Shown in pieces: positions 3,180-43,247 of a stretch of 64,000 nucleotides of DNA. Source of the DNA: Gemmatimonadales bacterium (lineage in GTDB: Bacteria > Gemmatimonadota > Gemmatimonadetes > Gemmatimonadales > GWC2-71-9); the NCBI GenBank assembly GCA_041580775.1, contig JBFGDF010000001.1, positions 22,219-86,218 of the forward strand. Reading direction: 5' to 3'. The translations under genes were made by a program, and so were the position numbers. Under the pieces are notes generated by a model. That model saw only the letters and a program-made list of their open reading frames with translations. It was not told where the DNA came from and did no database searches. The stretch's first letter is position 1; each line of letters begins with the position of its first letter.

Positions 3180-5840
<2,661 letters not shown>

Positions 5841-5927
5841 CCGAATCCCTGCGCGGGGGTACGCTGCAACATACTAGGGCGCGCCGGGAGACCGCGCCAT
5901 CCGGGTCGCGGGACGCAGCGCACCCGC

Positions 5928-6500: not shown

Positions 6501-6774
6501 CTTCACGCGACGACCAGCGGCCGTCGGGCCTGTAGGCTGCGCATGTCGGAAGGCCACTCCAAGGGCTCGACCGTAAGATGGAGCGAAGCGCACCCCGGGA
6601 CCAGCGCGCGGGCCCTGATTGTCGACCGCGGCCCGCTTACGCGCAAGAGCGCGCGTGCCCCATCGTCGGGTGGAGGGCGCTGGGTGCTGCCACAGCGTCA
6701 CACTCGCCAGACGGGGCAACGCGGCCCCTCGATGACGTCGAACCAGCGGTCGAACGGCGCCATGGGCTGGGCCG

Positions 6775-7398
6775 TCAGAAGCTGATCTTCTCCGTGCATC
6801 GAATCGAGGCGGGGTCTTCCCCATCCCACACGCATCTGTCGACGCCGCTGTACGCGGCTCGCTTGCCGTCCGTCCGCACCAGACGCCCCTGGGCCGCGAG
6901 CCCGAAGGCGTTCACGTGCCGGCTGGGATCCAGGAACGCCAGCAGGTCGTTGTCCGTGTAGGTGAGATTCCCCGTTCCCTCAGCGACTTTTCGCTCCAGC
7001 AGCGCGTCGCAGCCGAGCCCCGCCGCGACCCAGCCTGCGGGGTCTCGGTAGACGGCGATGTGCACCCCCCGACCCTGGACGAGTTCGATGACACGCCCGG
7101 CGACCGGGTCGTCAGTGTTGTTCAGGAGGTCCTGCACGTCCAGGAACGAGTAGAAGGTGGGCGTTGCATTGCAGCCGAACTGCCCGTCCGTTGCGGCCTG
7201 GATCGAGAACAGGCTTCGGTCCCAGTCCACGATGAAGTACCCGAACACATCCTGGAACCGCACGATGCGCGGGTGCGCGTTGTCCGGGTTGTTCGTGAAG
7301 TTGAGGCTGACGCCTTCTGCCGCCGTGGGGGGGACGGTCCCGCGGTCGCACGCGACGAGCAGTAGGAGCGGGACGAGGGTGAGGGGGGACGTTCGCAT
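6775..7398 (-). CDS. Lipoprotein of unknown function
   Basis: 207-aa ORF with a signal peptide and lipobox (MRTSPLTLVPLLLLVAC). GGAGG lies 4 nt upstream of the ATG. No family recognised. Confidence 0.6.
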   Translation of the reverse strand: MRTSPLTLVPLLLLVACDRGTVPPTAAEGVSLNFTNNPDNAHPRIVRFQDVFGYFIVDWDRSLFSIQAATDGQFGCNATPTFYSFLDVQDLLNNTDDPVAGRVIELVQGRGVHIAVYRDPAGWVAAGLGCDALLERKVAEGTGNLTYTDNDLLAFLDPSRHVNAFGLAAQGRLVRTDGKRAAYSGVDRCVWDGEDPASIRCTEKISF

Positions 7399-7536
7399 GG
7401 CAGCCTCCGACGTGAGGGGTGGGCTCGCACCGGCGGCGCGGGATCCCGCGATCCGCCAGGGCGCGATCCTACGGAGGCCGCGTCAAGCAGCCGTCAAGTC
7501 ACGGGCGGAGGCTCGGATAGGCAGGCGCGCTTTGCG

Positions 7537-9078: not shown

Positions 9079-9180
9079 CGGATTCCTCCTGAGTGACGGC
9101 AGATACGCTAGCGCCGGAGCGGCATGGTTGCAATCGGTGCGCGGCAGCCCGTTCATTGGGGGAACCCCAAGGAGGGAGCC

Positions 9181-9855
9181 ATGTCTCAGTCATCGCCGGC
9201 GCGCCGCCCGTCCGGACCCCGGGAGCCGGTCCGCGCCCTGGTCTTCGCCGCATCGCTCCGTAAGGACTCGCTCAACGCCAAACTCGCCGAGCTGGCCGCC
9301 GCTGTGGTGGAGGCGCACGGCGGCAGCGTGGACCGCGCGACGATGCGTGAGTTCGACGGGCCGTCCTACGACGCGGACGCGCAACAGGCCAGCGGGTTCC
9401 CGCCGGGTGCCGAGGCGTTTCGCCGGCGCGTCGAAGCGAGCGACTGCCTCGTCATCGCCTCGCCCGAATACAACTTCTCCATGCCGGGCGCCCTCAAGAA
9501 CGCCATCGATTGGGTCTCGCGCTTCCGCCCACAGCCGTTCAACGAGCGCCACGCGCTGCTGCTCTCGGTCTCCCCTTCGATGGTCGGCGGCAATCGGGGG
9601 TTGTGGGCCCTGCGGGTGCCGCTCGAGCACCTGGGCACGCGCGTGTACCCGGACATGTTCTCGCTGGCGCAGGCACACCAGGCGTTTGACGCGAACGGCC
9701 GCATCGCCAATGCGCAGCTGCAGGAGCGCTTCGAGCGTACGGTGGCCGGATTCCTCGACCTCGTCGAGGCCGCCAAGCACTACCCCTGCGCCAAGAAAGC
9801 GTGGATCGAGTTCCTGGGGGAGCACCCCGATCCGGCAACCGATCGCGTCGAGTGA
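9181..9855 (+). CDS. NAD(P)H-dependent FMN reductase family protein
   Basis: LVFAASLRKDSLNAKLA...IASPEYNFSMPGALKNAIDWVSR. RBS GGAGGGAG at 9171-9178 points to ATG 9181 rather than the ORF-track start at 9124. Confidence 0.75.
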   Translation: MSQSSPARRPSGPREPVRALVFAASLRKDSLNAKLAELAAAVVEAHGGSVDRATMREFDGPSYDADAQQASGFPPGAEAFRRRVEASDCLVIASPEYNFSMPGALKNAIDWVSRFRPQPFNERHALLLSVSPSMVGGNRGLWALRVPLEHLGTRVYPDMFSLAQAHQAFDANGRIANAQLQERFERTVAGFLDLVEAAKHYPCAKKAWIEFLGEHPDPATDRVE

Positions 9856-27284: not shown

Positions 27285-27664
27285 GAGGGTGTCCTCCGGA
27301 CGGTGTCGTCGGTGAGTCCAGGCGCGTCGGTGACCGTGTCACCGGCGCCCGCGGTGAAGCTGGGCACGTCCCGCATTAGCGCGAGGCCGGGCGTCTCGAG
27401 CAGAACATCGGTGGGCGCCGTCCAGGTGACGGCGGCCAGGTCAATGGGGTACGGCACGGCGGCGCGTGGACGCAGCGTCCACCAGGCGAGCCCAGCCCCG
27501 GCAAGGAGTACCACCGCCGCCGCGGCGGCGAGCGGGCGCACGGCGACACGCCGTCTCCCGGCGACGGGCGGGACGGCGAACGGCGGTGTGGTAGCGGCCT
27601 CTTCGGCAGCGAGCGCGGCGAACCGTGCCCGCAGCACCGCGTCAGCGGGATCGCGCTCAGGCAT
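27281..27664 (-). CDS. Single-pass anti-sigma factor (putative)
   Basis: 127 aa from ATG 27664 with one TM segment (PLAAAAAVVLLAGAGLAWWTL). 8-nt overlap with the ECF sigma gene. Assigned by position only. Confidence 0.5.
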   Translation of the reverse strand: MPERDPADAVLRARFAALAAEEAATTPPFAVPPVAGRRRVAVRPLAAAAAVVLLAGAGLAWWTLRPRAAVPYPIDLAAVTWTAPTDVLLETPGLALMRDVPSFTAGAGDTVTDAPGLTDDTVRRTPS

Positions 27665-28178
27665 TGGTCCCCTCCCCCAGCAGGGCGCGCAGGCGCGTCT
27701 TGCCGCGCTCGTAATGGGTCCGTGCCGTCCCCACCGATACCCGGAGAACGGCGGCGGCCTCGGCGATCGTGAGGTCCTGATAGAACACGAGGTGGAGCAC
27801 CTCCCGCTGCCGGGCGGGCAGCTGGCGCAGCGCCGCGACGAGGCGCGCCGACGCTTCTGCTCGCGCCATCGCGGTAGCGGGATCCAGGCCGGGCGCGTGC
27901 GCGCCCCCCCGCCCATCGAGGCTCGCGAGCGGCAGCAACCGGCGGACCGTCCGGCGACGCCGCTCCTCGGCCGCGGTCCGCCGGATCACGCCGAACAGCC
28001 ACGTGCGGAACGCCGAACGCCCTGCATAGCGGGCGCGGCCGTCGATGATCTTCAGGTACGCCGTCTGCAACACGTCCTCCGCCATCGTGCGGTCCCACCG
28101 GCAGCAGGCGAGCGCCCAGCCGAAGGCCGCGCGATGGTGCTGCGTGAGTTCCGCTTCCAGGTCGCTCCGGGTCATCAC
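27657..28178 (-). CDS. ECF (group IV) sigma-70 factor
   Basis: Region 2 is EDVLQTAYLKI...FRTWLFGVIRRTA. Region 4 is LPARQREVLHLVFYQDLTIAEAAAVLRVSVGTARTHYERGK. Confidence 0.85.
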   Translation of the reverse strand: MMTRSDLEAELTQHHRAAFGWALACCRWDRTMAEDVLQTAYLKIIDGRARYAGRSAFRTWLFGVIRRTAAEERRRRTVRRLLPLASLDGRGGAHAPGLDPATAMARAEASARLVAALRQLPARQREVLHLVFYQDLTIAEAAAVLRVSVGTARTHYERGKTRLRALLGEGTNA

Positions 28179-28235
28179 ACCAGTGCCGGCTCAGACCATG
28201 AGTGGCGCGAACGGGATCATCATATGACAATGGCG

Positions 28236-28241
28236 TATACT
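28236..28241 (+). promoter_or_regulatory. -10-like TATACT box 7 nt upstream of ATG 28249 (leaderless-type)
   Basis: The plus strand reads TATACT-aggggcg-ATG, with no separate Shine-Dalgarno at normal spacing. Confidence 0.35.
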
Positions 28242-28248
28242 AGGGGCG

Positions 28249-28581
28249 ATGGGCATCCTGCTGCTGCTGCTCGGGCTCCTGGCCGCAGGCTCCGGGGTCG
28301 TGAAACTCACATCGCGGGCCCGGCACCATCATGGGGTGTCGCCGCTTGCGTGGATCGAGGGCGGGGTCGGGACGATCGTGGTGCTGGCCTCCGGGGTGGG
28401 GCTCGGGCGGCTGCGGCCACTCGCCTGGACCGTCGTGGGGATCACGGCGCTCGTGGTCGTGGTGTCGTCCGCCGCGTACGTTCGGCGGGGACGGCAGGCG
28501 CGGGAGCGGCGGAGAACGTCGGAAGAAGATCGCCTGCGGCGGTACCTCGGGGGCAAATGGGAACGGTCCCCGCCCCGCTAG
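28249..28581 (+). CDS. Small membrane protein (110 aa, three hydrophobic segments, basic tail)
   Basis: MGILLLLLGLLAAGSGVV..., WIEGGVGTIVVLASGVGL..., WTVVGITALVVVVSSAAYV, then an RRGRQARERRR tail. Confidence 0.55.
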   Translation: MGILLLLLGLLAAGSGVVKLTSRARHHHGVSPLAWIEGGVGTIVVLASGVGLGRLRPLAWTVVGITALVVVVSSAAYVRRGRQARERRRTSEEDRLRRYLGGKWERSPPR

Positions 28582-29129
28582 ATGTCGAGGGGCGATCCGA
28601 AGGTGTCGTCGAACTGCCGGTCTCGGGCTCGCTCCTGCGCCTGCTGCTGGCGCAGGATGTACATGCCAAACGAGCTCGCCTGCCCCACGTTGAATCCATA
28701 GGCCGCGACCTCAAACTGGTCCCCGACGTCGAGCCGGGTTCGACCCCTGTGCACATCCGGCTGCTCGATTCCGTCCCGCCAGTCCCCCCAATGCACCAGC
28801 TCGTGAAGCACAATGGCCTCCAGCGCCAGCTGATTCCGCCGGATGCGCGGAGCCCGCTCGTACGCTCGAGCGAGTGAACGGGAGATCATCACCGCCGTTG
28901 GGGCCTGGGGAACAAATAGCCCGAGCTTCTTCAAGCGCACGATACGAACGAACGGACCTTCCCCCCAAGTCAGGACCCGGGTCGCCTCGTGTGGCGTGAA
29001 CTGGCCGTAACGCAGGAACGCGCGCCAGATCTGTCCTCCATCACGACGAGGGATCGTGTCCCGCGCCTGACGCAGCCAGTGAGCGGTCTGCGGGTAGACC
29101 TGCGCCTGTAACGGATACATGCGGGCCAT
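28578..29129 (-). CDS. Small HExxH zincin-like protein, no signal peptide
   Basis: The only recognisable motif is AIVLHELVHWGDW. Start is ATG 29129 (MARMYPLQ) with GGAG 6 nt upstream. Confidence 0.55.
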   Translation of the reverse strand: MARMYPLQAQVYPQTAHWLRQARDTIPRRDGGQIWRAFLRYGQFTPHEATRVLTWGEGPFVRIVRLKKLGLFVPQAPTAVMISRSLARAYERAPRIRRNQLALEAIVLHELVHWGDWRDGIEQPDVHRGRTRLDVGDQFEVAAYGFNVGQASSFGMYILRQQQAQERARDRQFDDTFGSPLDI

Positions 29130-29737
29130 GGGTCGCTCCGGTTTCAGCAGTTGCGCGCACGGTGCACGAACGACTACCGCATCTGCTGCAAACATGGCCC
29201 GGGGTCACGGGGCTGCAAGTCGACGACGGATGTGGTCGTCGTCAGCCGCACCGCGCGGAATCGTGCCTGGCCTACGCGTTCGGCACGCCTCGCCGAAGCC
29301 CGCTGGTCCCAACGGCCAGTGTGACGCCGAACACCAAAACGGCCAGCGGCTGCACGCCCCATCGCCGCGCAATGTGCCACGCCTGTTTGCCAACTGCCGT
29401 GCCGTGCATGCGGCACTCCATCCTCCCCGGCCCCGGTGTTGTACGGTGGCTCACACTGGCAAGTAACGCTCGCCGCTCGCGCAACAACGAGGCCGTCTCG
29501 GGCGCGTGACGGAAGCGCTTGCCGACGCGACGGTTGGCTCGCTCCGCTCGCTGGGCCGGGAGGGACGATCCGACCCTGCGTGGCCGAAACGACTAGGACG
29601 GCACGCCTCTTGTTCCTTATTCGTACGGTACCGCCGCGCAGGGTTGCAGCGGCGAACAGCGACGATACGGGCGCTCCCCTTTTCGGGTAGCCGCCCCGCG
29701 ACGGTAGACGCGGGACCCTGGGGTCCAGGAGTGACAC

Positions 29738-31102
29738 GTGCCCCGACTCTGTGTGGTGAGACTCTCCGAGGCGTTCGAGCGCTTCTGGCACGACGTGGCG
29801 GCCGACCTTGCCGTCACGCTGCGAGGCGCCCGGGCCAACGGCGCCGTCACGCCCGAGCGCGACACGATCGCCATCGTGCTGGCGGCCGGCGGTGCGGAGC
29901 GCGATGCGTTACGGTGGCTCCAGAATCACGACGTCCCGGCGACGATCCCGACACTCGTGGTGGGCGCGGATCCGTGCCGTCGGCTTGCGATGCAGATGGT
30001 GCGGTATGGCGCCGGCGACTACTTCGCCCTGCCCGAAGACGTCGAGGTCCTGCGGAGCGCGCTCGCCACGGCGCTGACCCGGAGTCGGGAACGGGGGGAC
30101 GAGTCCGTCGTCGGCGACGGACCGGACGCATTCGGCGCGATTGTCGGTGGGAGTCCACTGATGCGAACCGAGATCGAACGGGCAGCCACGCTGGCCCGTC
30201 ACCGCAACGCATCGGCCCTGATCCTGGGCGATACCGGGACGGGGAAGGAACTGCTCGCCCGGGCGATCCATGCGGCCAGCCCCCGCGCCGCAGCGCCGTT
30301 CGTGGCCGTGAACTGCTCGGCACTCCCGGAACACTTGGTCGAATCCGAGCTGTTCGGCCACGAGCGTGGCGCGTTCACCGACGCCCACGCCGCCAAACCC
30401 GGTCTGTTCGAGGTGGCAAACGCCGGCTCGCTGTTTCTCGACGAGATCGGTGACATTCCGCTGCTGCTGCAGGCCAAACTGCTGCGCGCGCTGGATGACA
30501 AGGAGATTCGTCGAGTCGGCGGCACGAAGTCGCGGGCCGTGGACGTGCGCATCCTCGCGGCCACCAACGAGGATCTGGACCGCTGCGTGCGCGAGGGGAC
30601 GTTCCGAGAAGACCTCTACTTCCGACTGAGCACGGTCGTCTTCCGGCTGCCGCCGCTCCGGGATCGGGGGGACGACGTGCTCCTCATTACGTCCGCCTTG
30701 CTGGAACGCCTCGCGTCCGAGCACGAGGTCCCCGTCCCACCGCTGACGGACGAGGTGCGGCACCGGCTGCTCACGCACCCCTGGCCGGGGAACGTGCGTG
30801 AACTCAAGAATGCCATCGAACGCGCGCTGTTGCTGTCGCCCCCGGGGCGCCTGAATGCCGCGGAAATCCTGCCCGAGACGGCGCCTCCGCTCCAGAACGG
30901 TGGACCCATCCCCTTCCCCGCCCCACTCGCCGATATCACGTGCGCCGCCGCGCGCGCGACGGTGGAGTGGTGCCATGGGAACCGCGCCGAGTCGGCCCGC
31001 CGCCTGGGCATTTCGCCTCGCCGGCTCCGGCGGCTCCTCGCGGGCGCCGACGGTGAAGGCATCGAGGACGATCAGCCCGAGCCCGAGACCGTTTCGGCCT
31101 GA
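29738..31102 (+). CDS. Sigma-54-type AAA+ transcriptional activator (NtrC family) with degenerate receiver-like N-domain and C-terminal Fis-type HTH
   Basis: Walker A GDTGTGKE, ESELFGHERGAFTDA, Walker B LFLDEIGD, and C-terminal NRAESARRLGISPRRLRRLL. AGGAG lies 6 nt upstream of GTG 29738. Palindrome GGACCC-TG-GGGTCC at 29713-29726. Confidence 0.85.
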   Translation: MPRLCVVRLSEAFERFWHDVAADLAVTLRGARANGAVTPERDTIAIVLAAGGAERDALRWLQNHDVPATIPTLVVGADPCRRLAMQMVRYGAGDYFALPEDVEVLRSALATALTRSRERGDESVVGDGPDAFGAIVGGSPLMRTEIERAATLARHRNASALILGDTGTGKELLARAIHAASPRAAAPFVAVNCSALPEHLVESELFGHERGAFTDAHAAKPGLFEVANAGSLFLDEIGDIPLLLQAKLLRALDDKEIRRVGGTKSRAVDVRILAATNEDLDRCVREGTFREDLYFRLSTVVFRLPPLRDRGDDVLLITSALLERLASEHEVPVPPLTDEVRHRLLTHPWPGNVRELKNAIERALLLSPPGRLNAAEILPETAPPLQNGGPIPFPAPLADITCAAARATVEWCHGNRAESARRLGISPRRLRRLLAGADGEGIEDDQPEPETVSA

Positions 31103-31368
31103 TCCTCCCCAGCGGCAGTCCCAACCGAGCGCGACGCGTGGTCGATTCGACCACGCCCATGGTCAACATGACCCTGCGGCCCCCGCCGTCCTGCGCCCGC
31201 CCGTCGCCGTAACTCCAAGTCCCCAAAACACCTGCCTCGACCGAGCCGGCGCGGAACGCTTCGTGCCACCTCGCTGCATCACACAATTGCGGCGTGGCGT
31301 GGGTCACCAACCTCGCGGATCGACGCGGGAAGCCGCAGCCACCGGACAGAAAGGGAAACGACACACGT

Positions 31369-32070
31369 ATGTCTCGACACTGGATGCTCGGATCGGTGGC
31401 TGTTGCCGCGGTGCTCCTGGCCTGTGCGGACTCGGCGGCCCCGTCGGCCGACGGGCTGCCGTCACTCGGCCGCGCGCCGCAGCAGGTGCGCTGGGCGGAT
31501 GGCCCACCGGCGCTGCGGGCGCTGGGGCTCACCCCCACGACCCTGATCGGTGGTGACCCCGTGGTGGAAGGACTCTCTTTCTCCGCCACCAGCCTGGAGC
31601 TCGACGCCTACACCGTCTCGTTCTGGGCGGTCGCGGGTCAGGACCGCGGCGTCCAGATCAACTGGCTGGATGACGGGACGTGGCAGCCGTACCTGATCTT
31701 CGACGTGCCCGAGGACGCTCTCAAGGCCATGCCCGACGGGCGACCGATGGTACCCGGCGATTCGGTGCTGATCACCGTCACGATCGATACGCTGGACATG
31801 GTGGCGCACTTCGAGCCCACCGGGCTCGCCTTCAAGTCCAACGAACCCGCGCGGCTGCAGATGTGGTACGCGGGGGCGCGGGGCGACTTGAACGGCGACA
31901 GCGGTGCGGACGCGACCGACTCGGCCATCGAGCTCACGGCCCTCGGCCTCTGGTATCAGGAAACGACCGCAGACCCGTGGAACCGACTCGACGCGGTCGC
32001 ACAGTCCGTGAGCGACGACTGGTTCCGCGCCGCGCTCGAGCACTTCTCCGGCTACGCCATTGCGTGGTGA
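31369..32070 (+). CDS. Lipoprotein, paralog A of a three-member tandem family (unknown function)
   Basis: Signal peptide with lipobox MSRHWMLGSVAVAAVLLAC. Shared blocks AYTVSFWAV, PDGRPMVPGDSVLITVTID and a C-terminal EHFSGYAIAW. Asp-rich GDLNGDSGADATD loop. Confidence 0.75.
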   Translation: MSRHWMLGSVAVAAVLLACADSAAPSADGLPSLGRAPQQVRWADGPPALRALGLTPTTLIGGDPVVEGLSFSATSLELDAYTVSFWAVAGQDRGVQINWLDDGTWQPYLIFDVPEDALKAMPDGRPMVPGDSVLITVTIDTLDMVAHFEPTGLAFKSNEPARLQMWYAGARGDLNGDSGADATDSAIELTALGLWYQETTADPWNRLDAVAQSVSDDWFRAALEHFSGYAIAW

Positions 32071-32086
32071 AGGAACGGGGACTGCC

Positions 32087-32701
32087 ATGACACGGCGCGC
32101 ATTCCGACGCATCGGGCTGGCACTGATCGCGGGCGTAGGGGGCTGCGCAGACCTCGGCGTGCCTCCCGACGGGACCTCGAGTGGCGAGATCGCCCTTTTC
32201 GGGGGACGCCACGCACCCGTGGTCGTCGCCCTGGCGGACAGCGCCCCGCGCCTCGAGGCCTACGCCGCAGCGTTCTGGGCGGTACAGGGTCGCCGCACGA
32301 CGTTCCGGCTGCACTACCTCGCGCCGGACCCGGAGCGGAGCGGCGGAGAGTTGCAGAAGTACCTCGTGCTCACGATCCCGGCCTTCACGCAGATCGTCCA
32401 CCCTGACGGCACGCCGCTCGTCGCGGGCGACTCGCTCCTGATCACCGTGACGGTGGACGGACTGGACCTCGCCGTGGAGCTCGGGCCGGACGGCGCCATG
32501 TTCGCCGGCGACCCCCTGCAGCTCGCGCTGTGGCTGGTCTACGCGGACCTGAATCCTCAACTCGGCGCGAGCGACCTTCGGATTTGGTATCGGCCGCCCG
32601 GCCCGGACGCGTGGACACCGCAACCGACCAGAGTGATCGCGGGCGGCAAAGCGCTGATCGGCGACCTGCGGCACTTCTCGAATTATGCCGTCGCCTACTG
32701 A
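32087..32701 (+). CDS. Lipoprotein, paralog B (divergent, lacks the Asp-rich loop)
   Basis: MTRRAFRRIGLALIAGVGGC lipobox. AYAAAFWAV, PDGTPLVAGDSLLITVTVD and a C-terminal RHFSNYAVAY. Confidence 0.7.
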   Translation: MTRRAFRRIGLALIAGVGGCADLGVPPDGTSSGEIALFGGRHAPVVVALADSAPRLEAYAAAFWAVQGRRTTFRLHYLAPDPERSGGELQKYLVLTIPAFTQIVHPDGTPLVAGDSLLITVTVDGLDLAVELGPDGAMFAGDPLQLALWLVYADLNPQLGASDLRIWYRPPGPDAWTPQPTRVIAGGKALIGDLRHFSNYAVAY

Positions 32702-32735
32702 TGCCTGGAACCGACGACGAACTGAGGGCCATTCG

Positions 32736-33467
32736 ATGCCACGACGCCCATTCCTGACCTCGATTCTGGTCGGCGCCGCGCTCCTGAGCTGCGGCGAGAG
32801 CGCCGGACCCCGGCTGGACGGACCGTCGCTGAGCCGGCACCCGCGGTACCTGGCCTGGGGCGGAGACGCGCCCCTCGTGATTCGCGCGATCGGCACGAGC
32901 GTGGCCACCCGCGGGACGGGCACCGGCACGGGCAGCGGCGAGCTGCCGCACGGATTCTCGGCCTCCCTGCAATTGAGCGCGTACCAGGTCGGCTTCTGGG
33001 CCGTGAAAGGCGAAGCACGGGGTGTGCAGATCGACTATGAGACGTGCGTTGCTTGGGAGGGGGAGCTCTGCACCGCCCGGACCTGGCATCCCTATCTGCT
33101 GCTTGACGTGCCGGCCAGCGCGCTGGCGCAGTGGCCAAACGGCAGCGCGATCGCCACCGGGGACTCCGTCTTCATCGAGCTGACCGTCGATCCGCAGAGC
33201 ATGGTCGTCGAGCTCGAGCCGTCCGGTCTGCGGTTCGGCGCGGGCGGGGCCGCACTCCAGATGTACTACACCGGCGCTCACGGGGATTACGACGGCGATG
33301 GTGACGCCGACACCGTCGATGGCGACATCGAGCGGCAGTGGATGGGGATGTTCTACCAGGCCGCGCCGACGGAGCCATGGGTGGCCATGGGCAGCCAGCA
33401 CTCGGTCTCCGGCCGCTGGTTCACGGCCTGGCTCGAGCACTTTTCGGGCTACGCCATCGCGTGGTAG
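32736..33467 (+). CDS. Lipoprotein, paralog C
   Basis: MPRRPFLTSILVGAALLSC lipobox. AYQVGFWAV, PNGSAIATGDSVFIELTVD, GDYDGDGDADTVDGD and a C-terminal EHFSGYAIAW identical to paralog A. Confidence 0.75.
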   Translation: MPRRPFLTSILVGAALLSCGESAGPRLDGPSLSRHPRYLAWGGDAPLVIRAIGTSVATRGTGTGTGSGELPHGFSASLQLSAYQVGFWAVKGEARGVQIDYETCVAWEGELCTARTWHPYLLLDVPASALAQWPNGSAIATGDSVFIELTVDPQSMVVELEPSGLRFGAGGAALQMYYTGAHGDYDGDGDADTVDGDIERQWMGMFYQAAPTEPWVAMGSQHSVSGRWFTAWLEHFSGYAIAW

Positions 33468-33560
33468 CACGGCCGATCATGCCGACGCGACCCCTGCGCC
33501 CGACGCGGTTTCAGAACTTCGCGATCGCCTGTCGTCGCGGTCACTGCTGAGGATGGACGC

Positions 33561-35561
33561 ATGACCACAGCTACGCTCTCCCCCGTGGACCATGAGGCGG
33601 CGTTCCGGCTCGCCGAGGCCGGTCGGCACGCGGAGCTGCTGACCTTCCTCCAGAGCTGGCCGGTGGAGACCGTGGAGGCGTCGCCGGCCCTCGCGCTGCT
33701 GTGCGGCACGGCGCACGCGCGTCTCGGGCGGCATGCCCTTGGGTTGCGCTGGGTGGAAACGGCCCTCAGCGGGGCGCGCCGTGAGGGCGACGGTGCGATC
33801 GAACGCCGTGCGCTGAACGCGCGGGGCGCCATCTCCCTGGTGACCGGTCGGGTGGACGAGGGTGCCGACTATTTCACGCAAGGCCTGCTCGCCGCCAGCC
33901 GGGACAACGACCTGGCCGGGATTGGCCGGTGTGCCAGCAATATCGGCGTGATCAACAACCTGCAGGGCCGGCAGGCCGAGGCAATCTCTTCGTACGCCAT
34001 GGCGGTGGCCGCGTACGCGAGCGCTGGGATGCACGGGGGCGTGGCCGAGTGTCACCACAACCTCAGCATCACCTATCGGGAACAGGACCATCTGGACCGG
34101 GCATTGGCCGAGGCACTGCGGGCGGCCGACGCCGCCGAGGCCTCGGGGGACGCCGGACTGCAGGCCCTCACGCTGCGCGGTCGCGCCGAGGTACGCGTGG
34201 CTCGGCAGGAATGGACGGCGGCGCGCCGGGAGATCCAGCTCGCGCTGGAGCGGCAACGGGCCCTCGGCGACCGGCTCCAGGAAGCCGAGAGCCTGCGCAT
34301 CCTGGCCGCCGTGCTGGCGGCCGAGGGGCAGCTCGCCGACGCGGAAGCCACCCTGCGGGACGTAATCGCGCGCGCCGAGGAGATGGAGCGCCCCCAACTC
34401 GTGGCGGAAGCAACGCGTGACCTAGCGCTGTTGCTGCACAAGCAGGGTCGGGACCGGGAGGCACGAGACGCCGCTCGCAAGGCCAAGCGGATCTTCGCGC
34501 AATTGGGCGCCGTCTACGAGCTGCGGAAGCTGGCGGAGCACGAGTGGGAGGACGAGTTCGCCGCGGAGCTGCGTCAGGTGCTTGCGCCGCTTCACGCCGC
34601 CCAGCGGATGGCGGACAGCGGACATTACGCCGAACTGGTGCGGTACCTGAGCGTGCGTCCGTACGACGAGCTCGAGCGCTCCCCGACCCTGTCGCTCCTG
34701 CGGGCCGTGGGACACGCGCGGCTGGGCCAGACGGACGCCGCGCGGCAGTGGGCACTGATCGCGCTGACGCGCGCTCGGGCGCGTGGCGACCGGGCGGTCG
34801 AGGTGCGGGCGCTGAACGTGAGCGGTGCCATCGCGCTGGAGATGGGCGGTGTCGACGAGGCCGTCCACTTCTTCGATCGGGCCCGGGAAGAAGCGATGCT
34901 GGAGAACGACCTTTCGACCGTGGGGCGCGCGTCGAACAACCTGGGTGTGATCGCCAACATGCAGGGCGACTACGGGCGGGCGGTCGGCGCATATACGATG
35001 GCCATCGCCGCGTATCAGCACGCACACGCCGAGCGCGGGGTCGCCGAGTCGCAGCACAATCTGGGGATTACGTTCCGCGATCAGGGGAAGCTCACCAACG
35101 CGCTGCAGGCCGCGGACGAGGCGATTCGCGGTGCCACCCGGGCGGGCGATGCCAGTCTGAAGGCGCAGGCGCTGGCCGGCCGCGCCGAGATCCGGGTCGT
35201 GCAGGGCGATGCGCGCGTGGCGCGCCGCGAGGCGGAGCGGGCGGCCGAGGCGCATCGGACGCTGAACGATCCAGTCCGCGAAGCGGAGGACAAGCGGATC
35301 CTCGCCAATGCCATGGCCGCCAGCGGGCAAATCGACGAGGCCATGGCGCTGCTGCGCGAGGTGACCGAACGGGCGCGCGTGTACACCCGGCCGCTGCTGG
35401 TGGCCACCGCCCAACGCGACCTGGCTCTCCTGCTGGCCCGCACGGGGGCGCGCGGCGAGGCGCGGGACGTCGCAGAGCAGGCGCGAGCGACGCTGCTCGA
35501 GCTGGGCGCCGCGGTCGAGGCCCGCAAGCTCGAGCACTTCCTCGGCGGCTCGGCCGCGTGA
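33561..35561 (+). CDS. TPR-like all-helical protein made of two colinear ~333-aa halves
   Basis: 666 aa. The two halves align by eye, for example NIGVINNLQGRQAEAISSYAMAVAAY...ECHHNLSITYREQ against NLGVIANMQGDYGRAVGAYTMAIAAY...ESQHNLGITFRDQ. GAGGA lies 7 nt upstream of the ATG. Confidence 0.75.
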   Translation: MTTATLSPVDHEAAFRLAEAGRHAELLTFLQSWPVETVEASPALALLCGTAHARLGRHALGLRWVETALSGARREGDGAIERRALNARGAISLVTGRVDEGADYFTQGLLAASRDNDLAGIGRCASNIGVINNLQGRQAEAISSYAMAVAAYASAGMHGGVAECHHNLSITYREQDHLDRALAEALRAADAAEASGDAGLQALTLRGRAEVRVARQEWTAARREIQLALERQRALGDRLQEAESLRILAAVLAAEGQLADAEATLRDVIARAEEMERPQLVAEATRDLALLLHKQGRDREARDAARKAKRIFAQLGAVYELRKLAEHEWEDEFAAELRQVLAPLHAAQRMADSGHYAELVRYLSVRPYDELERSPTLSLLRAVGHARLGQTDAARQWALIALTRARARGDRAVEVRALNVSGAIALEMGGVDEAVHFFDRAREEAMLENDLSTVGRASNNLGVIANMQGDYGRAVGAYTMAIAAYQHAHAERGVAESQHNLGITFRDQGKLTNALQAADEAIRGATRAGDASLKAQALAGRAEIRVVQGDARVARREAERAAEAHRTLNDPVREAEDKRILANAMAASGQIDEAMALLREVTERARVYTRPLLVATAQRDLALLLARTGARGEARDVAEQARATLLELGAAVEARKLEHFLGGSAA

Positions 35562-35577
35562 TCCGCGGGTGAAGGCT

Positions 35578-35610
35578 CCCCACGCCCCGGGCCGTCGCCG
35601 GGGCGCGGGG
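35578..35610. terminator. GC-rich hairpin between convergent genes
   Basis: CCCCACGCCCCGG (35578-35590), 7-nt loop, CCGGGGCGCGGGG (35598-35610). 13 bp with one mismatch and no T-tract. Confidence 0.35.
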
Positions 35611-35650
35611 CGCCGCGCCGCAACCGTCCTTCCCGCGTGAAGTCCGGGGC

Positions 35651-36757
35651 CTACGCCCGCAGCGCCGCCAGCAGATTCTGGCGCCACGCCGTGCGCCCGG
35701 GCGGGGTGCCCGGCCAGCGCCACCGCAGGTACTGGCGGGGGGGCGCCATCACCTCGCGCACCAGCCGGCTCAGCCGCGCCTTATCCGCAAGCAAGTACCG
35801 CCGCCAGGCGAGGGAGCGGGTCACCGTCACGTGCTGAGGGCCGGTGGTACCGTGCCGCGCCGCGCGGACGAGCCAGTCCCGGAGCCGAAGCTCGCGCAGC
35901 GCGGCGCGGTCACGTCGGTCGCTGGGGCCGAGACGGACACCGCGCAGGGGATAGCGGCGCAGATCGTCCACCAGTACGCGGCCGACGACGCGGAGCGCTC
36001 GCTCCACCCCGAGCACGCGGGCGAGATATGACAGCTCCTGCCCCGCTTCGCGCGGGATCGCGTCCCACAGCAGCGCGAAGTCGAGCAGGCCGCGCACGTG
36101 CAGCATGTCGTGACGCACGAGGTGATGCAGCACGACCGCAGCGTGGTACTCGTCCGGCAACACCGGCAGGCCCTGCTCCGTCCGGACCCGCGCCCACACC
36201 GGCGGCGGCAAGGCCACCTCCTCGTCCGGCAGCAGGGTCCCGAGCGATTCGAGTCCCCAGTGCAAGTCGAGCAGCAGCTCGGTATGGTCGTTCGCGACAC
36301 TCGTGTCGGTGCGCGCCAGGGTGACCCCCGGCCGACCCGTCGCGGGCCCCCAACGCCGGGCGTCGCCGAGCTCTCCGTAGCCGACGGCGTGCAGGGCGGT
36401 GAGCGCGCGGGTGCGGTCGGCGCGATCGATCAGCAGGTCGATGTCGGCGAGGTGGCGCTCGTCAATGCGGTAAAACCGTCCGATCAGGGCGATCCCCTTG
36501 AAGAAGCAGTGCCGCACGTCCGCCTCGGTCAGCGCGCGGGACACCTGGCGCGCCTCCTTGCGGAGGCTCGCCCCCTGCTGGAGCCAGGGACTCGGCGGCA
36601 GCTCGCCGTCGTCGTGGAGGTGCCGCTCGATCCAGCGACGCACGCCGAACCGGCCGGCCAACTCCAGCGCGGGATCCGGGCCTCGCAGTTTGAGCCGCTG
36701 GGCCACTTCGCCAAGGACGTCGTGCAACCGCTCGTACACGGCAGTCGGGGATGGCAT
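35651..36757 (-). CDS. Uncharacterised nucleotidyltransferase-family protein (NTP_transf_5-like)
   Basis: 368 aa from ATG 36757. The FFKGIALIGRFY...RHLADIDLLIDRAD...LLDLHWGL pattern is as I remember for PF14907-type proteins. Confidence 0.55.
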   Translation of the reverse strand: MPSPTAVYERLHDVLGEVAQRLKLRGPDPALELAGRFGVRRWIERHLHDDGELPPSPWLQQGASLRKEARQVSRALTEADVRHCFFKGIALIGRFYRIDERHLADIDLLIDRADRTRALTALHAVGYGELGDARRWGPATGRPGVTLARTDTSVANDHTELLLDLHWGLESLGTLLPDEEVALPPPVWARVRTEQGLPVLPDEYHAAVVLHHLVRHDMLHVRGLLDFALLWDAIPREAGQELSYLARVLGVERALRVVGRVLVDDLRRYPLRGVRLGPSDRRDRAALRELRLRDWLVRAARHGTTGPQHVTVTRSLAWRRYLLADKARLSRLVREVMAPPRQYLRWRWPGTPPGRTAWRQNLLAALRA

Positions 36758-36832
36758 CCATCTCACGCGGGTGGGGGTGAATCGAGTCGCGCACAACATG
36801 CACACTCGGCGCGTGAGGCTGTGTGACGGAGG

Positions 36833-39281: not shown

Positions 39282-39449
39282 ATGGAATTCCTCACCTTTC
39301 TTCTGATTCTCTGGGCCGGCTGGCTCGTGTGGCGGCGGCCTGAGCGCGAGCGGCTCGCGTTCGGCCTGCTCGTGGCAAGCAGCCTGCTGATGGCGCTGCT
39401 GTTCCTGATCGGCACCCACACGTCGTTCGTGCCGGGCGTGAACCTGTGA
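39282..39449 (+). CDS. Unlisted small two-TM membrane protein (55 aa)
   Basis: MEFLTFLLILWAGWLVWRRPERERLAFGLLVASSLLMALLFLIGTHTSFVPGVNL. About 89% GC3. Its stop overlaps the GTG of the next gene (GTGA at 39446-39449). Confidence 0.6.
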   Translation: MEFLTFLLILWAGWLVWRRPERERLAFGLLVASSLLMALLFLIGTHTSFVPGVNL

Positions 39450-40921
39450 CGGCTCTGGCGCCGGACCGGTTGCGCACCGTCCTCGCGTGGGTCGTGATCG
39501 CGCTGATCGCGATCCCGGTGGGTGGGGCGGTGGTGCTGTGGGTCGCGCACGGCGACACCCCCTGCATCCTCTGCTGGTCGCAGCGGACCTCGATGATCCT
39601 GATCGCGCTGGTCGGGCTCTTCGTGCTGCGCTACGGCCCGCGTCCCCGCTATCTCGGCACGGCCGTCCTGCTCGGGACCTGGGGCGTGTTCATGGCCTTG
39701 CGGCACTCAGCCCTCCACCTGGCGCGCGACGTCGGCCAGGGCTTCGCGGCCCCCATCTTCGGTGTCCACACCTATGTGTGGTCGTGGTTCATCCACTGGA
39801 TCGTCCTCGCCGTGATCGGCGTGCTGATGCTGCTCATGCGGGGAGGATTCGGGGAGTGGGGAACGAGGGACACCGGTCGCACGGGCCGGTTCGCATTTGC
39901 GCTGTTCGTGATCGTGGTCGGCGCGAACGCGCTCCAGGCGATCGTCACGACGGGACCACCTCCCTTCATCGGCCAGGCCGATCCAGTCCGGTTCACGCTC
40001 AATCCCCGCCACTGGGTGTGGATGATGGAGGAATTGGAGGGCCGCGTCTCGCTGCGCGGATCGTGGACCATCCCGCGGCCGGACCCCGAGGCCGCCGACC
40101 CCGATCCCACGCACGGGCCACTGGCGGCGCTGCCAGCGCTCCCCGTGCTGGGCTGGGAGCGGATCGGCCCGCCGCTGCACGGGCGGCTCACCGACCTGGC
40201 CCGCGACTCGGCATCGGGCCGGTTTCTCGCCGTCACGGATCGCTACGGCACGTACGTGCTGGACAGCACCTTGTCGCGGGTCGAGCACCGCGTCGTCCTC
40301 GACCCCGGATACAGCATCGATCTGTCACCGCTCGCCGGGGCCGCCTTCCTGACCGGCGACACGCTCGCCCTCCTGGCAACCAACAAGAGCTACGTGCTCC
40401 TGCGGCCCGACCCCCAGGCGGATCCCGACCGCGAGTGGCGTCACTTCCTGGAGACGGACGGCGGCATTACCGAGCTGCGTCGCTCCCGGTTTGCGACGGT
40501 GCGCGCCCGCCAGATGTACGTACTGTCCTTGGCGTTCGACCCTGACACGGACGAGCTGATCACGGTGGCGGTGCCGAGCCCTCGGCACCGACGGCTGGTG
40601 GTGTCCCGGGTTGCGCGGGGGGACTTGGTGTTGGCCTCCGAGTTCGAGCCGCGCCTCGGCGCGGGTCTCACTCCGCTCGGTCCGGAGCGGTCGGCGGCGG
40701 AGTACGTGGTGACCGGCGCCGTGGTGGCCGACGGTCTGCTCTACGCGATGAGCGCGGCCTATTCCACGCTGCTGATGATCGATCTTCAGGACAAGGTCAC
40801 GCGCGGTGCGTATACCGTGCCCGGCATTGCGGATCCGGTCGGGCTCGCGGCCCGCGGTGCCCAGCTCCTCGTGGCGCAGGCCGATGGACGGGTCGCGGTG
40901 GTGGAGCGGCCCATGCCGTAG
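39446..40921 (+). CDS. DsbB-family-like membrane domain (single CxxC) fused to a ~300-aa C-terminal, probably periplasmic, domain
   Basis: The TPCILCWSQRTSMILIAL motif matches the DsbB/BdbC PCxLCxxQR signature. Five hydrophobic segments. These are the only two Cys in 491 aa. The C-terminal region has strand-rich repeats. Confidence 0.65.
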   Translation: MTALAPDRLRTVLAWVVIALIAIPVGGAVVLWVAHGDTPCILCWSQRTSMILIALVGLFVLRYGPRPRYLGTAVLLGTWGVFMALRHSALHLARDVGQGFAAPIFGVHTYVWSWFIHWIVLAVIGVLMLLMRGGFGEWGTRDTGRTGRFAFALFVIVVGANALQAIVTTGPPPFIGQADPVRFTLNPRHWVWMMEELEGRVSLRGSWTIPRPDPEAADPDPTHGPLAALPALPVLGWERIGPPLHGRLTDLARDSASGRFLAVTDRYGTYVLDSTLSRVEHRVVLDPGYSIDLSPLAGAAFLTGDTLALLATNKSYVLLRPDPQADPDREWRHFLETDGGITELRRSRFATVRARQMYVLSLAFDPDTDELITVAVPSPRHRRLVVSRVARGDLVLASEFEPRLGAGLTPLGPERSAAEYVVTGAVVADGLLYAMSAAYSTLLMIDLQDKVTRGAYTVPGIADPVGLAARGAQLLVAQADGRVAVVERPMP

Positions 40922-40967: not shown

Positions 40968-43109
40968 CTAGGGCTGCTGCCCCGCCTCGCCCAACTGGCT
41001 CCAGAGATAGGCGTACGTGAGTGCCAGCATCCGGGCCCGCTGCTGGGGAGTCACCCCGGCACCGTGGCCACCCTCCGTGTTCTCGTAGTAGAGCACGTCG
41101 TGTCCCTGCGCCAGCATCCGCGCCGCCATCTTCCGCGCGTGCCCCGGATGCACCCGGTCGTCGCGCGTCGTCGTGGTAAATAGGGGCCGCGGGTAGTCCC
41201 GGTCCGCGCGCACGTTCTGGTACGGCGAGTAGCGAGAGATATAGGCCCACTCCTCCGGGATGTCGGGATTGCCGTACTCCGCCATCCAGCTCGCGCCCGC
41301 CAGCAGCTTGTTGTACCGCCGCATGTCCAGCAGCGGCACGTTCACGACGACCGCGCCGAACAGCTCCGGCCGTTGTGTCATCGCGACACCCGTGAGCAGC
41401 CCGCCGTTGCTCCCGCCCTGAATGCCCAGGTACGCCGGCTGCGTGATTCCTCGAGCCACCAGGTCTTCCGCCACGGCCAGGAAATCGTCGTACGCCCGCT
41501 GCCGGTGCTCCTTGAGTGCCGCCCGATGCCATGCCGGGCCGAACTCGCCCCCGCCCCGGATGTTCGCCACGGCGTACACCCCACCCTGCTCGAGCCACGC
41601 CTTGCCCACGACGGAGCTGTAGGACGAGGTACGACTGATCTCGAACCCGCCGTAACCGTACAGCAGCGTCCGGTTCCGACCGTTGAGTGCGACATCCCGC
41701 CGGCGTACGACCCAGTACGGCACCGCCGTCCCATCTGCCGATTCCGCCTCATACTGCTCGATGATCAGTCGCTCGGCGTCGAACTGGGCCGGCAGGCGGC
41801 GCACCTCGTCCACGCGCCCGTCGTCACGATGGACGTACAGGGTCGTGGGCTGCACGAAACTCGAGTAGGTGAAGAAGAACCGATTGGAACGCAGATCGAC
41901 GTCCACCGTATTCACCGACCCGAAGTCCGGCGCCTGCACCCGCTCGCCGACCCAGCGGGTCCCGTCGAACCGGTATTTCCAGAGCTGGCCCCGTACGTTG
42001 TCGAGCACGCTGACCAGCAGGTAGTCCCGCGTGGGGCTGGCGCCTTGCACCGTGGAGCGCGGACCTGGCTCCACGACCACGCGGAAGTCGCGGCTCCCCC
42101 CCAGGAAGGCCTCGAGGTTCATGGCAATCACAGAGCCGGTGGCGTACGTGCGCCCACCCACGGTCCAGGGGTCGCGGACGTACACGGTCAACTGGTCGCC
42201 CACGAAGCCCGGGTCGGCGTCCAGCGGGATGTCGAGCCGCACGAGCGAGTCGCCGCGCAGCAAGTGCAGCGTGCCCTCAAAGAAGCTCGGCCGATGATAG
42301 AGCACCGGCTGCGTGCCCCACGCGGCTTCGAAGGACGCTGCGAAGACGGCCACGTCCGTCGGCTTCCCCTCGAACAGCGTCACCGCTGAGTCGAGCGGCG
42401 TGCCGCGGCGCCACAGCTTGGCGGTCCGGGCGTAGCCGGAGGCCGTGAGCGATCCGGTGCCCCAGTTGGTCGCGACCAGGAGCGTGCTGTCGTCCACCCA
42501 GCCCATCGAGCTCTTGGCTTCCGGGAGGAAGAACCCGTCCTGCACGAAACGGGCGTTCGGAAGGTCGAACTCCCGCCGCTCCACCGCATCCGATCCCCCG
42601 CGCGAGAGACTCGCGACACAGTGGCGGTACGCCGGCGCCAGACACGTCATGCCGCGGTACGCCCACGGGACCCCCTCCCGCTCGGCCAGGGCGTCGATGT
42701 CCAGCACGGTCTCCCACGCGGGCGTGCCCGACAGGTAGGACGCGAGCGTCGCGCGGCGGTAGATGCCGCGCGCGTGCGCCTCGTCGGTCCAGAAGTTGTA
42801 AACCGTCTCGCCCCGCGTGTTCGGATATGGGATGCGGTCCTCCGTGGTGAGGATCCGGAGGATGTCCTGCTCAAGGGTCGCAAACCCGGAATACGCCTGC
42901 AACTCGGCCACCGACTTCGCGTTCTGTTCCTCCACCCAGGCCAGCGCGCGCGCGCCTTCCACCTCCTCGAGCCAGAGGAACGGATCGTCCTGGACCGTCG
43001 CAGCCCCTGCGGGCGCTTGGGCCGCAAGACCGGGCACCGTCAGCAGGGCCAGGGCCACGAGCGACAGGTACGACGTGGGCAGGATACGGGGGCGATGGGT
43101 GTGGATCAT
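40968..43109 (-). CDS. Prolyl oligopeptidase (peptidase S9A), secreted
   Basis: N-terminal propeller, then the catalytic part with GGSNGGLL, RDDRVHP and EGGHGAG. Signal peptide from ATG 43109. GAGGAAGGA RBS. Confidence 0.85.
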   Translation of the reverse strand: MIHTHRPRILPTSYLSLVALALLTVPGLAAQAPAGAATVQDDPFLWLEEVEGARALAWVEEQNAKSVAELQAYSGFATLEQDILRILTTEDRIPYPNTRGETVYNFWTDEAHARGIYRRATLASYLSGTPAWETVLDIDALAEREGVPWAYRGMTCLAPAYRHCVASLSRGGSDAVERREFDLPNARFVQDGFFLPEAKSSMGWVDDSTLLVATNWGTGSLTASGYARTAKLWRRGTPLDSAVTLFEGKPTDVAVFAASFEAAWGTQPVLYHRPSFFEGTLHLLRGDSLVRLDIPLDADPGFVGDQLTVYVRDPWTVGGRTYATGSVIAMNLEAFLGGSRDFRVVVEPGPRSTVQGASPTRDYLLVSVLDNVRGQLWKYRFDGTRWVGERVQAPDFGSVNTVDVDLRSNRFFFTYSSFVQPTTLYVHRDDGRVDEVRRLPAQFDAERLIIEQYEAESADGTAVPYWVVRRRDVALNGRNRTLLYGYGGFEISRTSSYSSVVGKAWLEQGGVYAVANIRGGGEFGPAWHRAALKEHRQRAYDDFLAVAEDLVARGITQPAYLGIQGGSNGGLLTGVAMTQRPELFGAVVVNVPLLDMRRYNKLLAGASWMAEYGNPDIPEEWAYISRYSPYQNVRADRDYPRPLFTTTTRDDRVHPGHARKMAARMLAQGHDVLYYENTEGGHGAGVTPQQRARMLALTYAYLWSQLGEAGQQP

Positions 43110-43247
43110 GGGGTCCTTCCTCGGAATCCGAGCAACGTGGGTCCTGGTACGCGACAGGGGAAGTCGCTGGGGCGCTCGGCGGTGCCCGCGTAGGCGGCGG
43201 TCAACGCCGACCACGGACCGTGGCCCGCCCCACGGACTGCCTTTCGA

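Follow-up and report, generated by a model that had tools for sequence, protein, structure and literature searches.

Why do three small lipoproteins, encoded side by side, end in nearly the same residues? The question is raised by a 64,000-nucleotide stretch of the genome of a Gemmatimonadales bacterium (assembly GCA_041580775.1, contig JBFGDF010000001.1, positions 22,219 to 86,218; hereafter the window), in which three consecutive co-oriented genes, here called A, B and C, encode proteins whose C-termini read EHFSGYAIAW or a close variant of it. A first, sequence-only reading described them as a tandem triplication of a lipoprotein family that it did not recognise, and thought the aromatic C-terminus reminiscent of sorting or assembly signals. 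What looked like a novel family is probably a branch, phylum-wide but without annotation, of a superfamily known for self-cleavage, and the new parts are a conserved signalling cassette and its predicted sigma-54 control. Indeed, beyond what the sequence-only reading had reported, a sigma-54 promoter and activator lie upstream of the three genes and the gene for a nearly obligatory TPR partner lies downstream. The shared ending is best understood as a predicted self-cleavage motif followed by the last strand of the domain.

Family extent and predicted fold

The three open reading frames (ORFs), of 204 to 243 amino acids (aa), were found where the sequence-only reading had placed them, with gaps of 16 nucleotides (nt) between A and B and 34 nt between B and C, and each start is preceded by a purine-rich, Shine-Dalgarno-like stretch (coordinates in Table 1). 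Formal alignment upholds their paralogy. By BLASTP, A is 45% identical to C over the full length (E 2e-50) and 36% identical to B (E 6e-26), and a MAFFT alignment of the three proteins has 43 invariant columns, including F85, W86, A87, G130-D131-S132 and H225-F226-S227. The colinear blocks quoted earlier (AY..FWAV.G, PDG.P...GDSVLITVTVD and HFSGYAIAW) are all present, as is the identical EHFSGYAIAW end of A and C. Since the codons of this shared end differ synonymously at three sites (TTC/TTT, TCC/TCG and ATT/ATC), its identity was kept by selection and not by recent gene conversion. A profile search, in which A scores 275 bits against its own family profile, detected no further family copies in the 64-kb window. 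The closest relatives (86% and 77% identity) retain the A-B-C order, so the triplication predates those lineages, and B-type orthologs (P0009, P0013) are likewise the middle gene in related contigs.

When 5.8 billion proteins were searched by word index, 39 relatives came back. None has a name beyond 'hypothetical', and those few with an organism label belong to Gemmatimonadota. An exhaustive profile search of 1.84 billion cluster representatives retrieved 1253 at E≤1e-3 and 398 at E≤1e-30. A one-genome-per-species scan, seeded with a 17-sequence subset of the 39-sequence alignment, located 78 loci, all of them in metagenome-assembled genomes of Gemmatimonadota save one bin named 'Bacillati bacterium ANGP1' (L033, VBAL01000038.1). 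The soil study behind that 5.5-kb contig also produced several Gemmatimonadetes bins, and the label probably reflects a binning error. Copy number and occurrence in relatives, which the sequence-only reading had marked for examination, amount to 1 to 5 family genes per cluster across Gemmatimonadota.

Each of the three proteins opens with a short basic/hydrophobic signal peptide and a lipobox at residues 16-20 (LLAC in A, VGGC in B, LLSC in C), as had been read from the sequence. The lipobox cysteine is at least 90% conserved in the family, and 233 of 289 relatives fit a permissive lipobox pattern within their first 60 residues. By this pattern, which was used in place of a SignalP-type predictor, A, B and C are lipoproteins, that is, predicted substrates of signal peptidase II (SPII).

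A beta-sandwich had been suggested as a possible fold, and the AlphaFold model of A, built on the 39-sequence alignment, agrees with this guess. With a predicted local distance difference test score (pLDDT) of 83.9, and above 90 for core residues 78-233, the model is an all-beta sandwich from residue ~78 to 233, with one helix after an Asp-rich loop and a flexible N-terminal linker. Its relationship to known folds is provided by a sister subfamily. A second homology search, with 150 diverse members, found lipoproteins of 170-230 aa that all end in HFSxYAVAW. The profile of the window family and that of the sister subfamily align by hhalign with a probability of 99.2% (E 1.6e-19); the 96 aligned columns begin at the GDS block and run to the C-terminus, and the sister profile scores 35, 26 and 17 bits on A, C and B, respectively. 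In Foldseek, the sister model (P0216, core pLDDT >93) matches the ZU5 domains of ankyrin, UNC5b and ZO-1 (E 3e-5 to 5e-4, prob 1.0, TMt ≤0.57), and its next matches are the GAIN domains of BAI3, CD97, GPR56 and latrophilin (prob 0.89-1.0). Sub-threshold Pfam ZU5 matches (12-17 bits) occur in 4 of 10 sister members and fall on the expected blocks GGTLxVGxHTLxVPPGAL and FQPEGLVFxxPxxL. Strand order is collinear between the models of A and P0216; A adds a short strand and a loop-helix insertion between strands 6 and 7. Judged from these models and by transitive homology, the family is probably a divergent offshoot of the ZU5/Nup98-C/GAIN-B autoproteolytic superfamily (ECOD H-group).

What counts against this placement is that it is transitive for A, because the model of A itself has no significant Foldseek match in the PDB (best E 0.34); its best match by TM score, the NLRP1 FIIND (ZU5-UPA), is not significant either. 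Searches of PDB sequences gave dockerin loops and a weak match to 2qsv_A for the family profile and no match for the sister profile. In Pfam at E≤10, the 39 and 150 relatives produced only Dockerin_1 and FG-GAP loop matches, with no ZU5, GPS or Nup98; the gathering threshold of ZU5 (PF00791, 21 bits) was not reached, and A, B, C and the 150 relatives gave no match to this model even at E≤10. The description of the family as unrecognised therefore stands insofar as no Pfam or NCBIfam model matches A, B or C, but not as to its fold, which is probably of the ZU5/GAIN type via the sister subfamily.

The Asp-rich loop had been likened to a calcium site, present in A and C and lost in B, and this description can now be made more specific. 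In A and C, Asp or Asn occupies positions 1, 3, 5, 9 and 12 of the loop. In the model of A a helix (residues 182-191) follows, and the insertion sits between sandwich strands 6 and 7. At the loop the family profile matches dockerins in the PDB (best 2y3n_B, E 0.004, and about 12 more chains), and Pfam Dockerin_1 matches 15 of the 39 and 49 of the 150 members. B and its orthologs lack the loop through a deletion, and in the sister subfamily two invariant cysteines take its place. Its pattern makes the loop of A and C a dockerin-type F-hand site, predicted to bind Ca2+. The likeness to type I dockerins (PF00404) lies in the 12-residue D-x-[DN]-x-D-G-x-x-D-x-x-D loop followed by a helix, found in A, C and most relatives. 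The proteins are not dockerins, because there is one repeat only: the loop is single and lies inside a sandwich, whereas a dockerin is an independent, cohesin-binding module of ~60-70 aa with two F-hands in tandem, and no cohesin partner is known for the family. A and C each carry one such loop beside the part of the sandwich near the C-terminal motif; B does not.

The HF-S turn and predicted self-cleavage

Motif statistics were collected for 289 relatives of both subfamilies, 277 of which have a clear motif. Relative to the predicted cut (marked by an arrow, HF↓S), the P-2 residue is His in 77% and Gly in 17% of these, P-1 is Phe in 99%, and P+1 is Ser in 87%, Thr in 9% and Cys in 3%, with one Ala. 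Exactly 7 residues separate the cut from the protein end in 266 of 277 (96%), and the terminal residue is aromatic in all but one. In A these residues are SGYAIAW (32047-32067); B ends RHF↓SNYAVAY (tail 32678-32698) and C ends EHF↓SGYAIAW (tail 33444-33464). F226 and S227 form a two-residue turn between strands 218-225 and 228-232 in the model of A, the F-S pair is the last-hairpin turn in the sister model also, and in both models the last 7 residues are an integral strand with pLDDT >90. The two subfamilies that keep this motif otherwise share ~30% identity. Because Ser, Thr and Cys interchange beside a near-invariant Phe in a strained turn, and because the motif is missing from non-cleaving ZU5 domains, self-cleavage at HF↓S is rated as the somewhat likelier outcome, and the family proteins are predicted to undergo it.

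The sequence of events would be as follows. A, B and C would be exported by Sec and lipid-anchored via the lipobox cysteine, and their globular part would be a diverged autoproteolytic beta sandwich of the ZU5/GAIN-B type ('MAIN'-like, see below). S227 of A (equivalent to S198 of B and S237 of C) would use its side chain, with the aid of H225, to attack the carbonyl of F226 where the last hairpin makes its strained turn, and an N-to-O acyl shift would be followed by hydrolysis. The body, anchored by its lipid, would then end in ...EHF, and a peptide of 7 residues (SGYAIAW or SNYAVAY) would initially stay bound to it as the last beta strand.

Self-cleaving domains of the ZU5/GAIN type hold two large parts together non-covalently until force or degradation parts them, as in adhesion G-protein-coupled receptors (GPCRs), NLRP1/CARD8 and the bacterial MAIN proteins. 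PIDD and Nup98 are cut at HF↓S, and GAIN domains at HL↓T. In the FIIND of NLRP1/CARD8 the site is SF↓S (PMC3210808; PMC3482391). The ZU5 domains (PF00791; PIDD, UNC5, ankyrin, ZO-1 and the NLRP1/CARD8 FIIND) are the best structural match of the sister subfamily, whose weak Pfam ZU5 matches fall at GGxL..VPPGAL and FxPxGLxF..P..L. The eukaryotic domain is cytoplasmic and followed by UPA or death-fold modules, whereas that of the family is exported, lipidated and terminal, and has a Ca2+ loop. With the GAIN/GPS region of adhesion GPCRs it shares a His-hydrophobic-↓-Ser/Thr sequence in a beta turn, after which the next ~7 residues make up the last buried strand, which in the family would stay bound non-covalently after a cut. 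It differs in lacking the GAIN_A helical subdomain, the Cys-rich GPS signature and an attached seven-transmembrane receptor, so that a cut strand would be free and untethered. In adhesion GPCRs the exposed strand (the tethered agonist, 'Stachel') acts as a signalling peptide.

The closest parallel is with bacterial MAIN (Microbial Autoproteolysis INducing) domains, for instance in B. subtilis YfkN (Brogan & Rudner, bioRxiv 10.64898/2026.05.12.724683, 2026). Their HFS sequence is cut between F and S, as determined by Edman degradation; S-to-A abolishes cutting, S-to-T keeps it, and the products stay associated. Most MAIN domains are labelled ZU5 or GPS by DPAM, and Table S3 of that paper lists single-domain 'ZU5' proteins from Gemmatimonas and Gemmatirosa, undiscussed there, which may or may not be the present family (bioRxiv 10.64898/2026.05.12.724683). 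Both groups have an extracytoplasmic sandwich, probably of the ZU5/GAIN-B type in the family as well, and an H-F-S/T turn before a last strand that continues x-[YF]-A-[IV]: SaMAIN ends ...SHF↓SLFAIK and SpMAIN ...PHF↓THYAFV, compared with ...EHF↓SGYAIAW in the family. The architecture is different. MAIN proteins average 158 kDa and run from a signal peptide through adhesion or enzyme domains and MAIN to a C-terminal wall anchor, and cleavage frees the ectodomain; family proteins of 22-26 kDa have an N-terminal lipid anchor, carry the domain last and usually have no passenger, so that only a heptapeptide could be freed. The family is also confined to Gemmatimonadota and tied to TPR, sigma-54 and cyclic di-GMP (c-di-GMP) genes. 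Relatives of 400-440 aa have an extra domain on the anchored side. In P0050, P0055, P0092, P0094, P0105 and P0192 this is a region of ~200 aa between the lipobox region and the ZU5-like domain, without a family match and with a conserved ...TLSWSHTVG...NRLLVVGVS...RVELW... pattern.

Several observations weigh against self-cleavage. It is a prediction only, for every member of the family, and several ZU5 domains (ankyrin, UNC5b) do not self-cleave. Gly replaces the His base in the 17% of relatives noted above. Two MAIN seeds, SaMAIN and SpMAIN, were rebuilt from the synthetic genes of Table S8 and the database fragments P0295/P0300, and with these two seeds only, hhalign gives weak, non-significant matches to the family (P 0.003-0.006, probability 6-11%), in register at HFS. 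The ectodomain-release rationale of MAIN/GAIN cleavage cannot apply here, because the proteins are anchored at the N-terminus and stop with the last strand. An alternative is that these proteins have the same ZU5-like fold and no self-cleavage, the HFS turn being structural; they would then be Ca2+-dependent binding or adhesion lipoproteins and a regulated output of sigma-54/TPR/c-di-GMP regulators. ZU5 domains that do not cleave are indeed common, ankyrin, UNC5b and ZO-1, the best structural matches, among them; a clade with His-less GF[ST] exists, release of just 7 residues has no obvious use, and the dockerin-like loop suggests protein-protein docking. Non-cleaving ZU5 domains, however, do not keep the H-F-S motif, and the combination of Phe in 99% with Ser, Thr or Cys in 276 of 277 resembles the swapping of a nucleophile. 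This alternative is accordingly regarded as possible but doubtful, and predicted self-cleavage as the better account of the motif.

Could the aromatic end instead be a sorting, assembly or quality-control signal, such as a beta-signal for the beta-barrel assembly machinery (BAM) like that of outer-membrane proteins (OMPs), an export tag for surface lipoproteins, or a tag read by a PDZ or TPR domain? The near-constant aromatic residue, beyond which the protein almost never extends, fits such a role, as does the neighbouring TPR gene, since C-terminal peptides are frequent ligands of TPR folds. The proteins are modelled as soluble beta sandwiches and not as barrels, however, and the last 7 residues are a confidently modelled part of the fold. 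Conservation peaks not at the terminus but at the Phe and Ser/Thr/Cys of the hairpin turn, and the TPR partner lacks a signal peptide (its N-terminus contains no hydrophobic segment, and its ORF cannot be extended upstream), so it cannot meet a folded exported protein. A signal of this kind, as the sequence-only reading had proposed, is very improbable; an HF↓S self-cleavage motif and its post-cleavage strand explain the C-terminus better. An OMP beta-signal in particular was ruled out, the sandwiches being soluble and the strand integral to the fold. Donor-strand polymerisation between the paralogs was also dropped as a candidate, as a cleaved strand cannot join two bodies.

In one clade linked to GGDEF genes (L019-L053, e.g. 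L047 4983-5669; P0020, P0022, P0057, P0129) the protein runs beyond 7 residues after HF[CS]. A second strand-like segment (e.g. HFCEYAIAALLELAVSW) would make a C-terminal fragment of 15 residues, and Cys often stands in place of the Ser nucleophile.

The module found here is, at its minimum, a domain, a 7-residue strand and a stop codon, fixed to the membrane at the opposite end. If cleavage is true, the logic of ectodomain release fails and the family becomes a simple system for asking what a cleaved strand does; if there is no cleavage, an HFS turn can be conserved for some other purpose. In both cases, a large Gemmatimonadota family that had no annotation gains a probable fold, a testable chemistry and a regulatory context.

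A putative signalling cassette under predicted sigma-54 control

The neighbourhood of the lipoprotein genes is conserved. A six-frame census of the fetched loci was made with profiles for the family (F), the TPR protein (T), the activator (E), GGDEF (G) and HD_5 (H). A large majority of the 78 loci have T directly after an F gene, or after several in tandem, on the same strand. The layout E-F(n)-T, which is that of the window, accounts for about 44 loci, F-T-GGDEF-GGDEF for about 25, and F(n) with a TPR::HD_5 (HD-GYP-type) fusion after it for about 20. Cassettes may repeat (e.g. E T FFF T FFF T; E F T F T F T), and within one genome each has its own tail variant; in L013 the first triplet ends in SGFA[IV]AY and the second ends in SGYAVAW. 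Members of the sister subfamily sit in the same cassettes, next to a TPR gene with overlapping stop and start codons; one of them lies tightly between the genes for a response regulator and a TPR::HD fusion, again with overlapping stop and start codons. No description of a lipoprotein/TPR/sigma-54/c-di-GMP cassette was found in the literature.

Phylum-wide and in at least 1250 sequence clusters, then, lipoproteins of this family are associated with cassettes that combine a TPR protein with three alternative signalling outputs. From this gene order, they look like components of a signalling module rather than ordinary structural envelope proteins or mere regulated targets. The last of these is unlikely because the lipoprotein gene is tightly nested among signalling genes in three output contexts; such nesting, with overlapping stop and start codons, would be unusual for a mere target and is a further point against the non-cleaving alternative, in which the lipoproteins are simply what the regulators control.

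A different arrangement is seen in locus L007, where five tandem family genes (5117-9562; 215-249 aa) follow a divergent single-domain response regulator. There is no TPR gene within the 9.8 kb available, and three candidate -24/-12 elements stand before individual genes.

The probable control of the window's cassette can be read from the 266-nt spacer between the activator gene and A, which holds two palindromes and a GG-N10-GC element. The first palindrome, TGGTCGATTCGACCA (31139-31153), is perfect and lies within a 10+10 nt inverted repeat (31136-31156); the second (31160-31174) has one mismatch (TGGTC-N5-GACC). Both are ~80-115 nt upstream of the -24/-12 element and are candidate binding sites of the activator (upstream activating sequences, UAS). 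The 86%-identity relative L001 conserves both palindromes and the element, with substitutions in the palindromes at their centres only. Near-identical elements (among them CGGAACGCTTCCTGCA, TGGAACGCTTCCTGCT, CGGAACGGTTCCTGCT and GGGCACGCCCCCTGCG) occur 65-115 nt upstream of family genes in unrelated loci. When 104 upstream windows were scored for -24/-12 elements, 17 reached a score of at least 9, compared with 2.8 expected, and 5 reached at least 10, compared with 0.4 expected, a 6- to 12-fold enrichment across loci; the reverse strand of the same windows gave 6 and 0, respectively. The window's own element is a moderate match, at 8 of 12 scored positions, which tempers the case for it. No sigma-70-like promoter or intrinsic terminator was found within 31000-35700.

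In about 44 related loci the activator gene immediately precedes family genes. Its product has an AAA+ sigma-54 interaction domain and a weak Fis-type helix-turn-helix. With the spacing of the element, the upstream site and the adjacent enhancer-binding protein all in place, the arrangement is, as far as sequence goes, that of a sigma-54 operon, and A, B, C and the TPR gene most likely form one sigma-54-dependent transcription unit. The sigma-54 promoter would drive this operon, and the adjacent enhancer-binding protein would activate it from the two palindromes. NCBIfam models of the NtrC/FlbD/AtoC type match the activator from residue ~57-72, and its N-terminal ~130 aa (29738-30130) give no Pfam receiver match. 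The position of the phospho-acceptor Asp reads Ala by eye (IVLAAGG). The N-terminus may be a pseudo-receiver that is regulated by protein binding and not by phosphorylation. A comparison of the N-termini of the activator and the GGDEF proteins found no similarity that would indicate a shared TPR-docking domain.

Another upstream element, GGGCC[AT]GTTTCGGGCT, is found in L019-L053, ~140-165 nt upstream of the family gene, with GG-N10-GC spacing and a poor -12 box. It recurs in at least 14 loci that have no nearby sigma-54 activator and may be a weak sigma-54 promoter or a product of shared ancestry.

What could a membrane-anchored lipoprotein have to tell a cytoplasmic TPR protein? Either the heptapeptide or the cutting itself may serve signalling. 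In one proposal, the lipoproteins process themselves to yield a heptapeptide messenger. Once exported, they would be cut at HF↓S, and Ca2+ loss, envelope damage or force would free the last strand (SGYAIAW or SNYAVAY); the peptide would be taken up and bound by the partner TPR protein, which would then switch the sigma-54 activator, the GGDEF cyclases or the fused HD-GYP-type domain. A parallel exists in the peptide signalling of RRNPP/Rap-Phr systems, in which a small exported propeptide is cut by proteases, re-imported and bound by a cytoplasmic TPR receptor. By analogy, an exported precursor and a cytoplasmic TPR protein are encoded side by side, a short peptide from the C-terminus is the candidate signal, and an SBP_bac_5 gene of the OppA/DppA family occurs within 5 kb of the cassette in 16 loci, in several clades and at varied positions. 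The family precursor differs in being a folded lipoprotein with predicted self-cleavage, in a diderm host, and its heptapeptide is strongly conserved and not diversified, which lowers the standing of the proposal. On balance a heptapeptide messenger seems rather unlikely. If true, it would be a free bacterial counterpart of the 'Stachel' of adhesion GPCRs, and would allow signalling across the inner membrane without a transmembrane receptor. Examples of the SBP_bac_5 genes are those of L004 (9844-11520, minus strand), L006 (1533-3086, minus strand), L054-56 and L066-L085; the window contains none.

The cytoplasmic location of the TPR protein also bears on the route of export. Were the lipoproteins exported by Tat, they would fold and perhaps cleave in the cytoplasm, and the TPR protein could be their dedicated chaperone or proofreader. 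Twin-arginine-like n-regions do occur in B (TRRAFR; signal peptide 32087-32140) and C (PRRPFL; signal peptide 32736-32790), where they have the form RR-x-F, and an RR-x-hydrophobic motif is present in 89 of 233 relatives (~40%). A and ~60% of relatives lack the twin arginine, however, and the signal peptides are short (18-22 aa), as is typical of Sec/SPII substrates. Tat export of the family thus appears unlikely from its signal peptides, and the fusion of TPR to an HD-GYP-type domain, together with the GGDEF links, suggests signalling over chaperoning, which makes a Tat pathway with a TPR chaperone highly improbable. Export by Sec, followed by predicted self-cleavage outside the cytoplasm, is the preferred account.

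Feature coordinates and flanking genes

Table 1. Features of the lipoprotein cassette, in window coordinates.
Feature	Position	Strand	Basis
Paralog A, lipoprotein, 233 aa, Cys19	31369..32070	+	ORF, alignment, AlphaFold model
Paralog B, lipoprotein, 204 aa, Cys20	32087..32701	+	A-type domain without Ca2+ loop
Paralog C, lipoprotein, 243 aa, Cys19	32736..33467	+	ORF, alignment
Predicted self-cleavage site H225-F226-↓-S227 of A, with the 7-residue post-cleavage strand	32041..32067	+	Model turn, family statistics, MAIN HF↓S identity
Single dockerin/EF-hand-type loop of A, predicted Ca2+ site, DLNGDSGADATD, residues 173-184	31885..31920	+	Asp/Asn pattern, dockerin matches
Predicted Ca2+ loop of C, DYDGDGDADTVD, residues 184-195	33285-33320	+	Asp/Asn pattern
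Cytoplasmic TPR protein, 666 aa, two ~330-aa TPR_12/MalT-like units	33561..35561	+	Pfam TPR_12 E 3e-34, TPR_MalT
Sigma-54 enhancer-binding protein, 454 aa	29738..31102	+	Pfam PF00158 E 4e-65, AAA_lid_14, weak HTH_8
Two adjacent TGGTC-N5-GACCA palindromes, candidate UAS	31139..31174	.	Repeat search, conservation in L001
Sigma-54-type -24/-12 element CGGAACGCTTCGTGCC (GG-N10-GC), ~100 nt upstream of A start	31252..31267	+	

Upstream of the activator gene, a 205-aa ORF on the minus strand (28578-29195) matches Tox-MPTase3 (metallopeptidase toxin 3; Pfam E 3e-19) and is kept in L001/L002. A 524-aa ORF on the plus strand (27303-28877, no family match) overlaps it with its 3' end, and one of the two may not be a gene. 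Downstream of the cassette, 35651-36805 (minus strand) encodes an uncharacterised nucleotidyltransferase (NTP_transf_5), and the order of the downstream neighbours is also kept in L001/L002. Further along are an unusually long protein of 491 aa with an N-terminal DsbB-like match only (39446-40921, plus strand) and an S9 prolyl oligopeptidase (40968-43214, minus strand).

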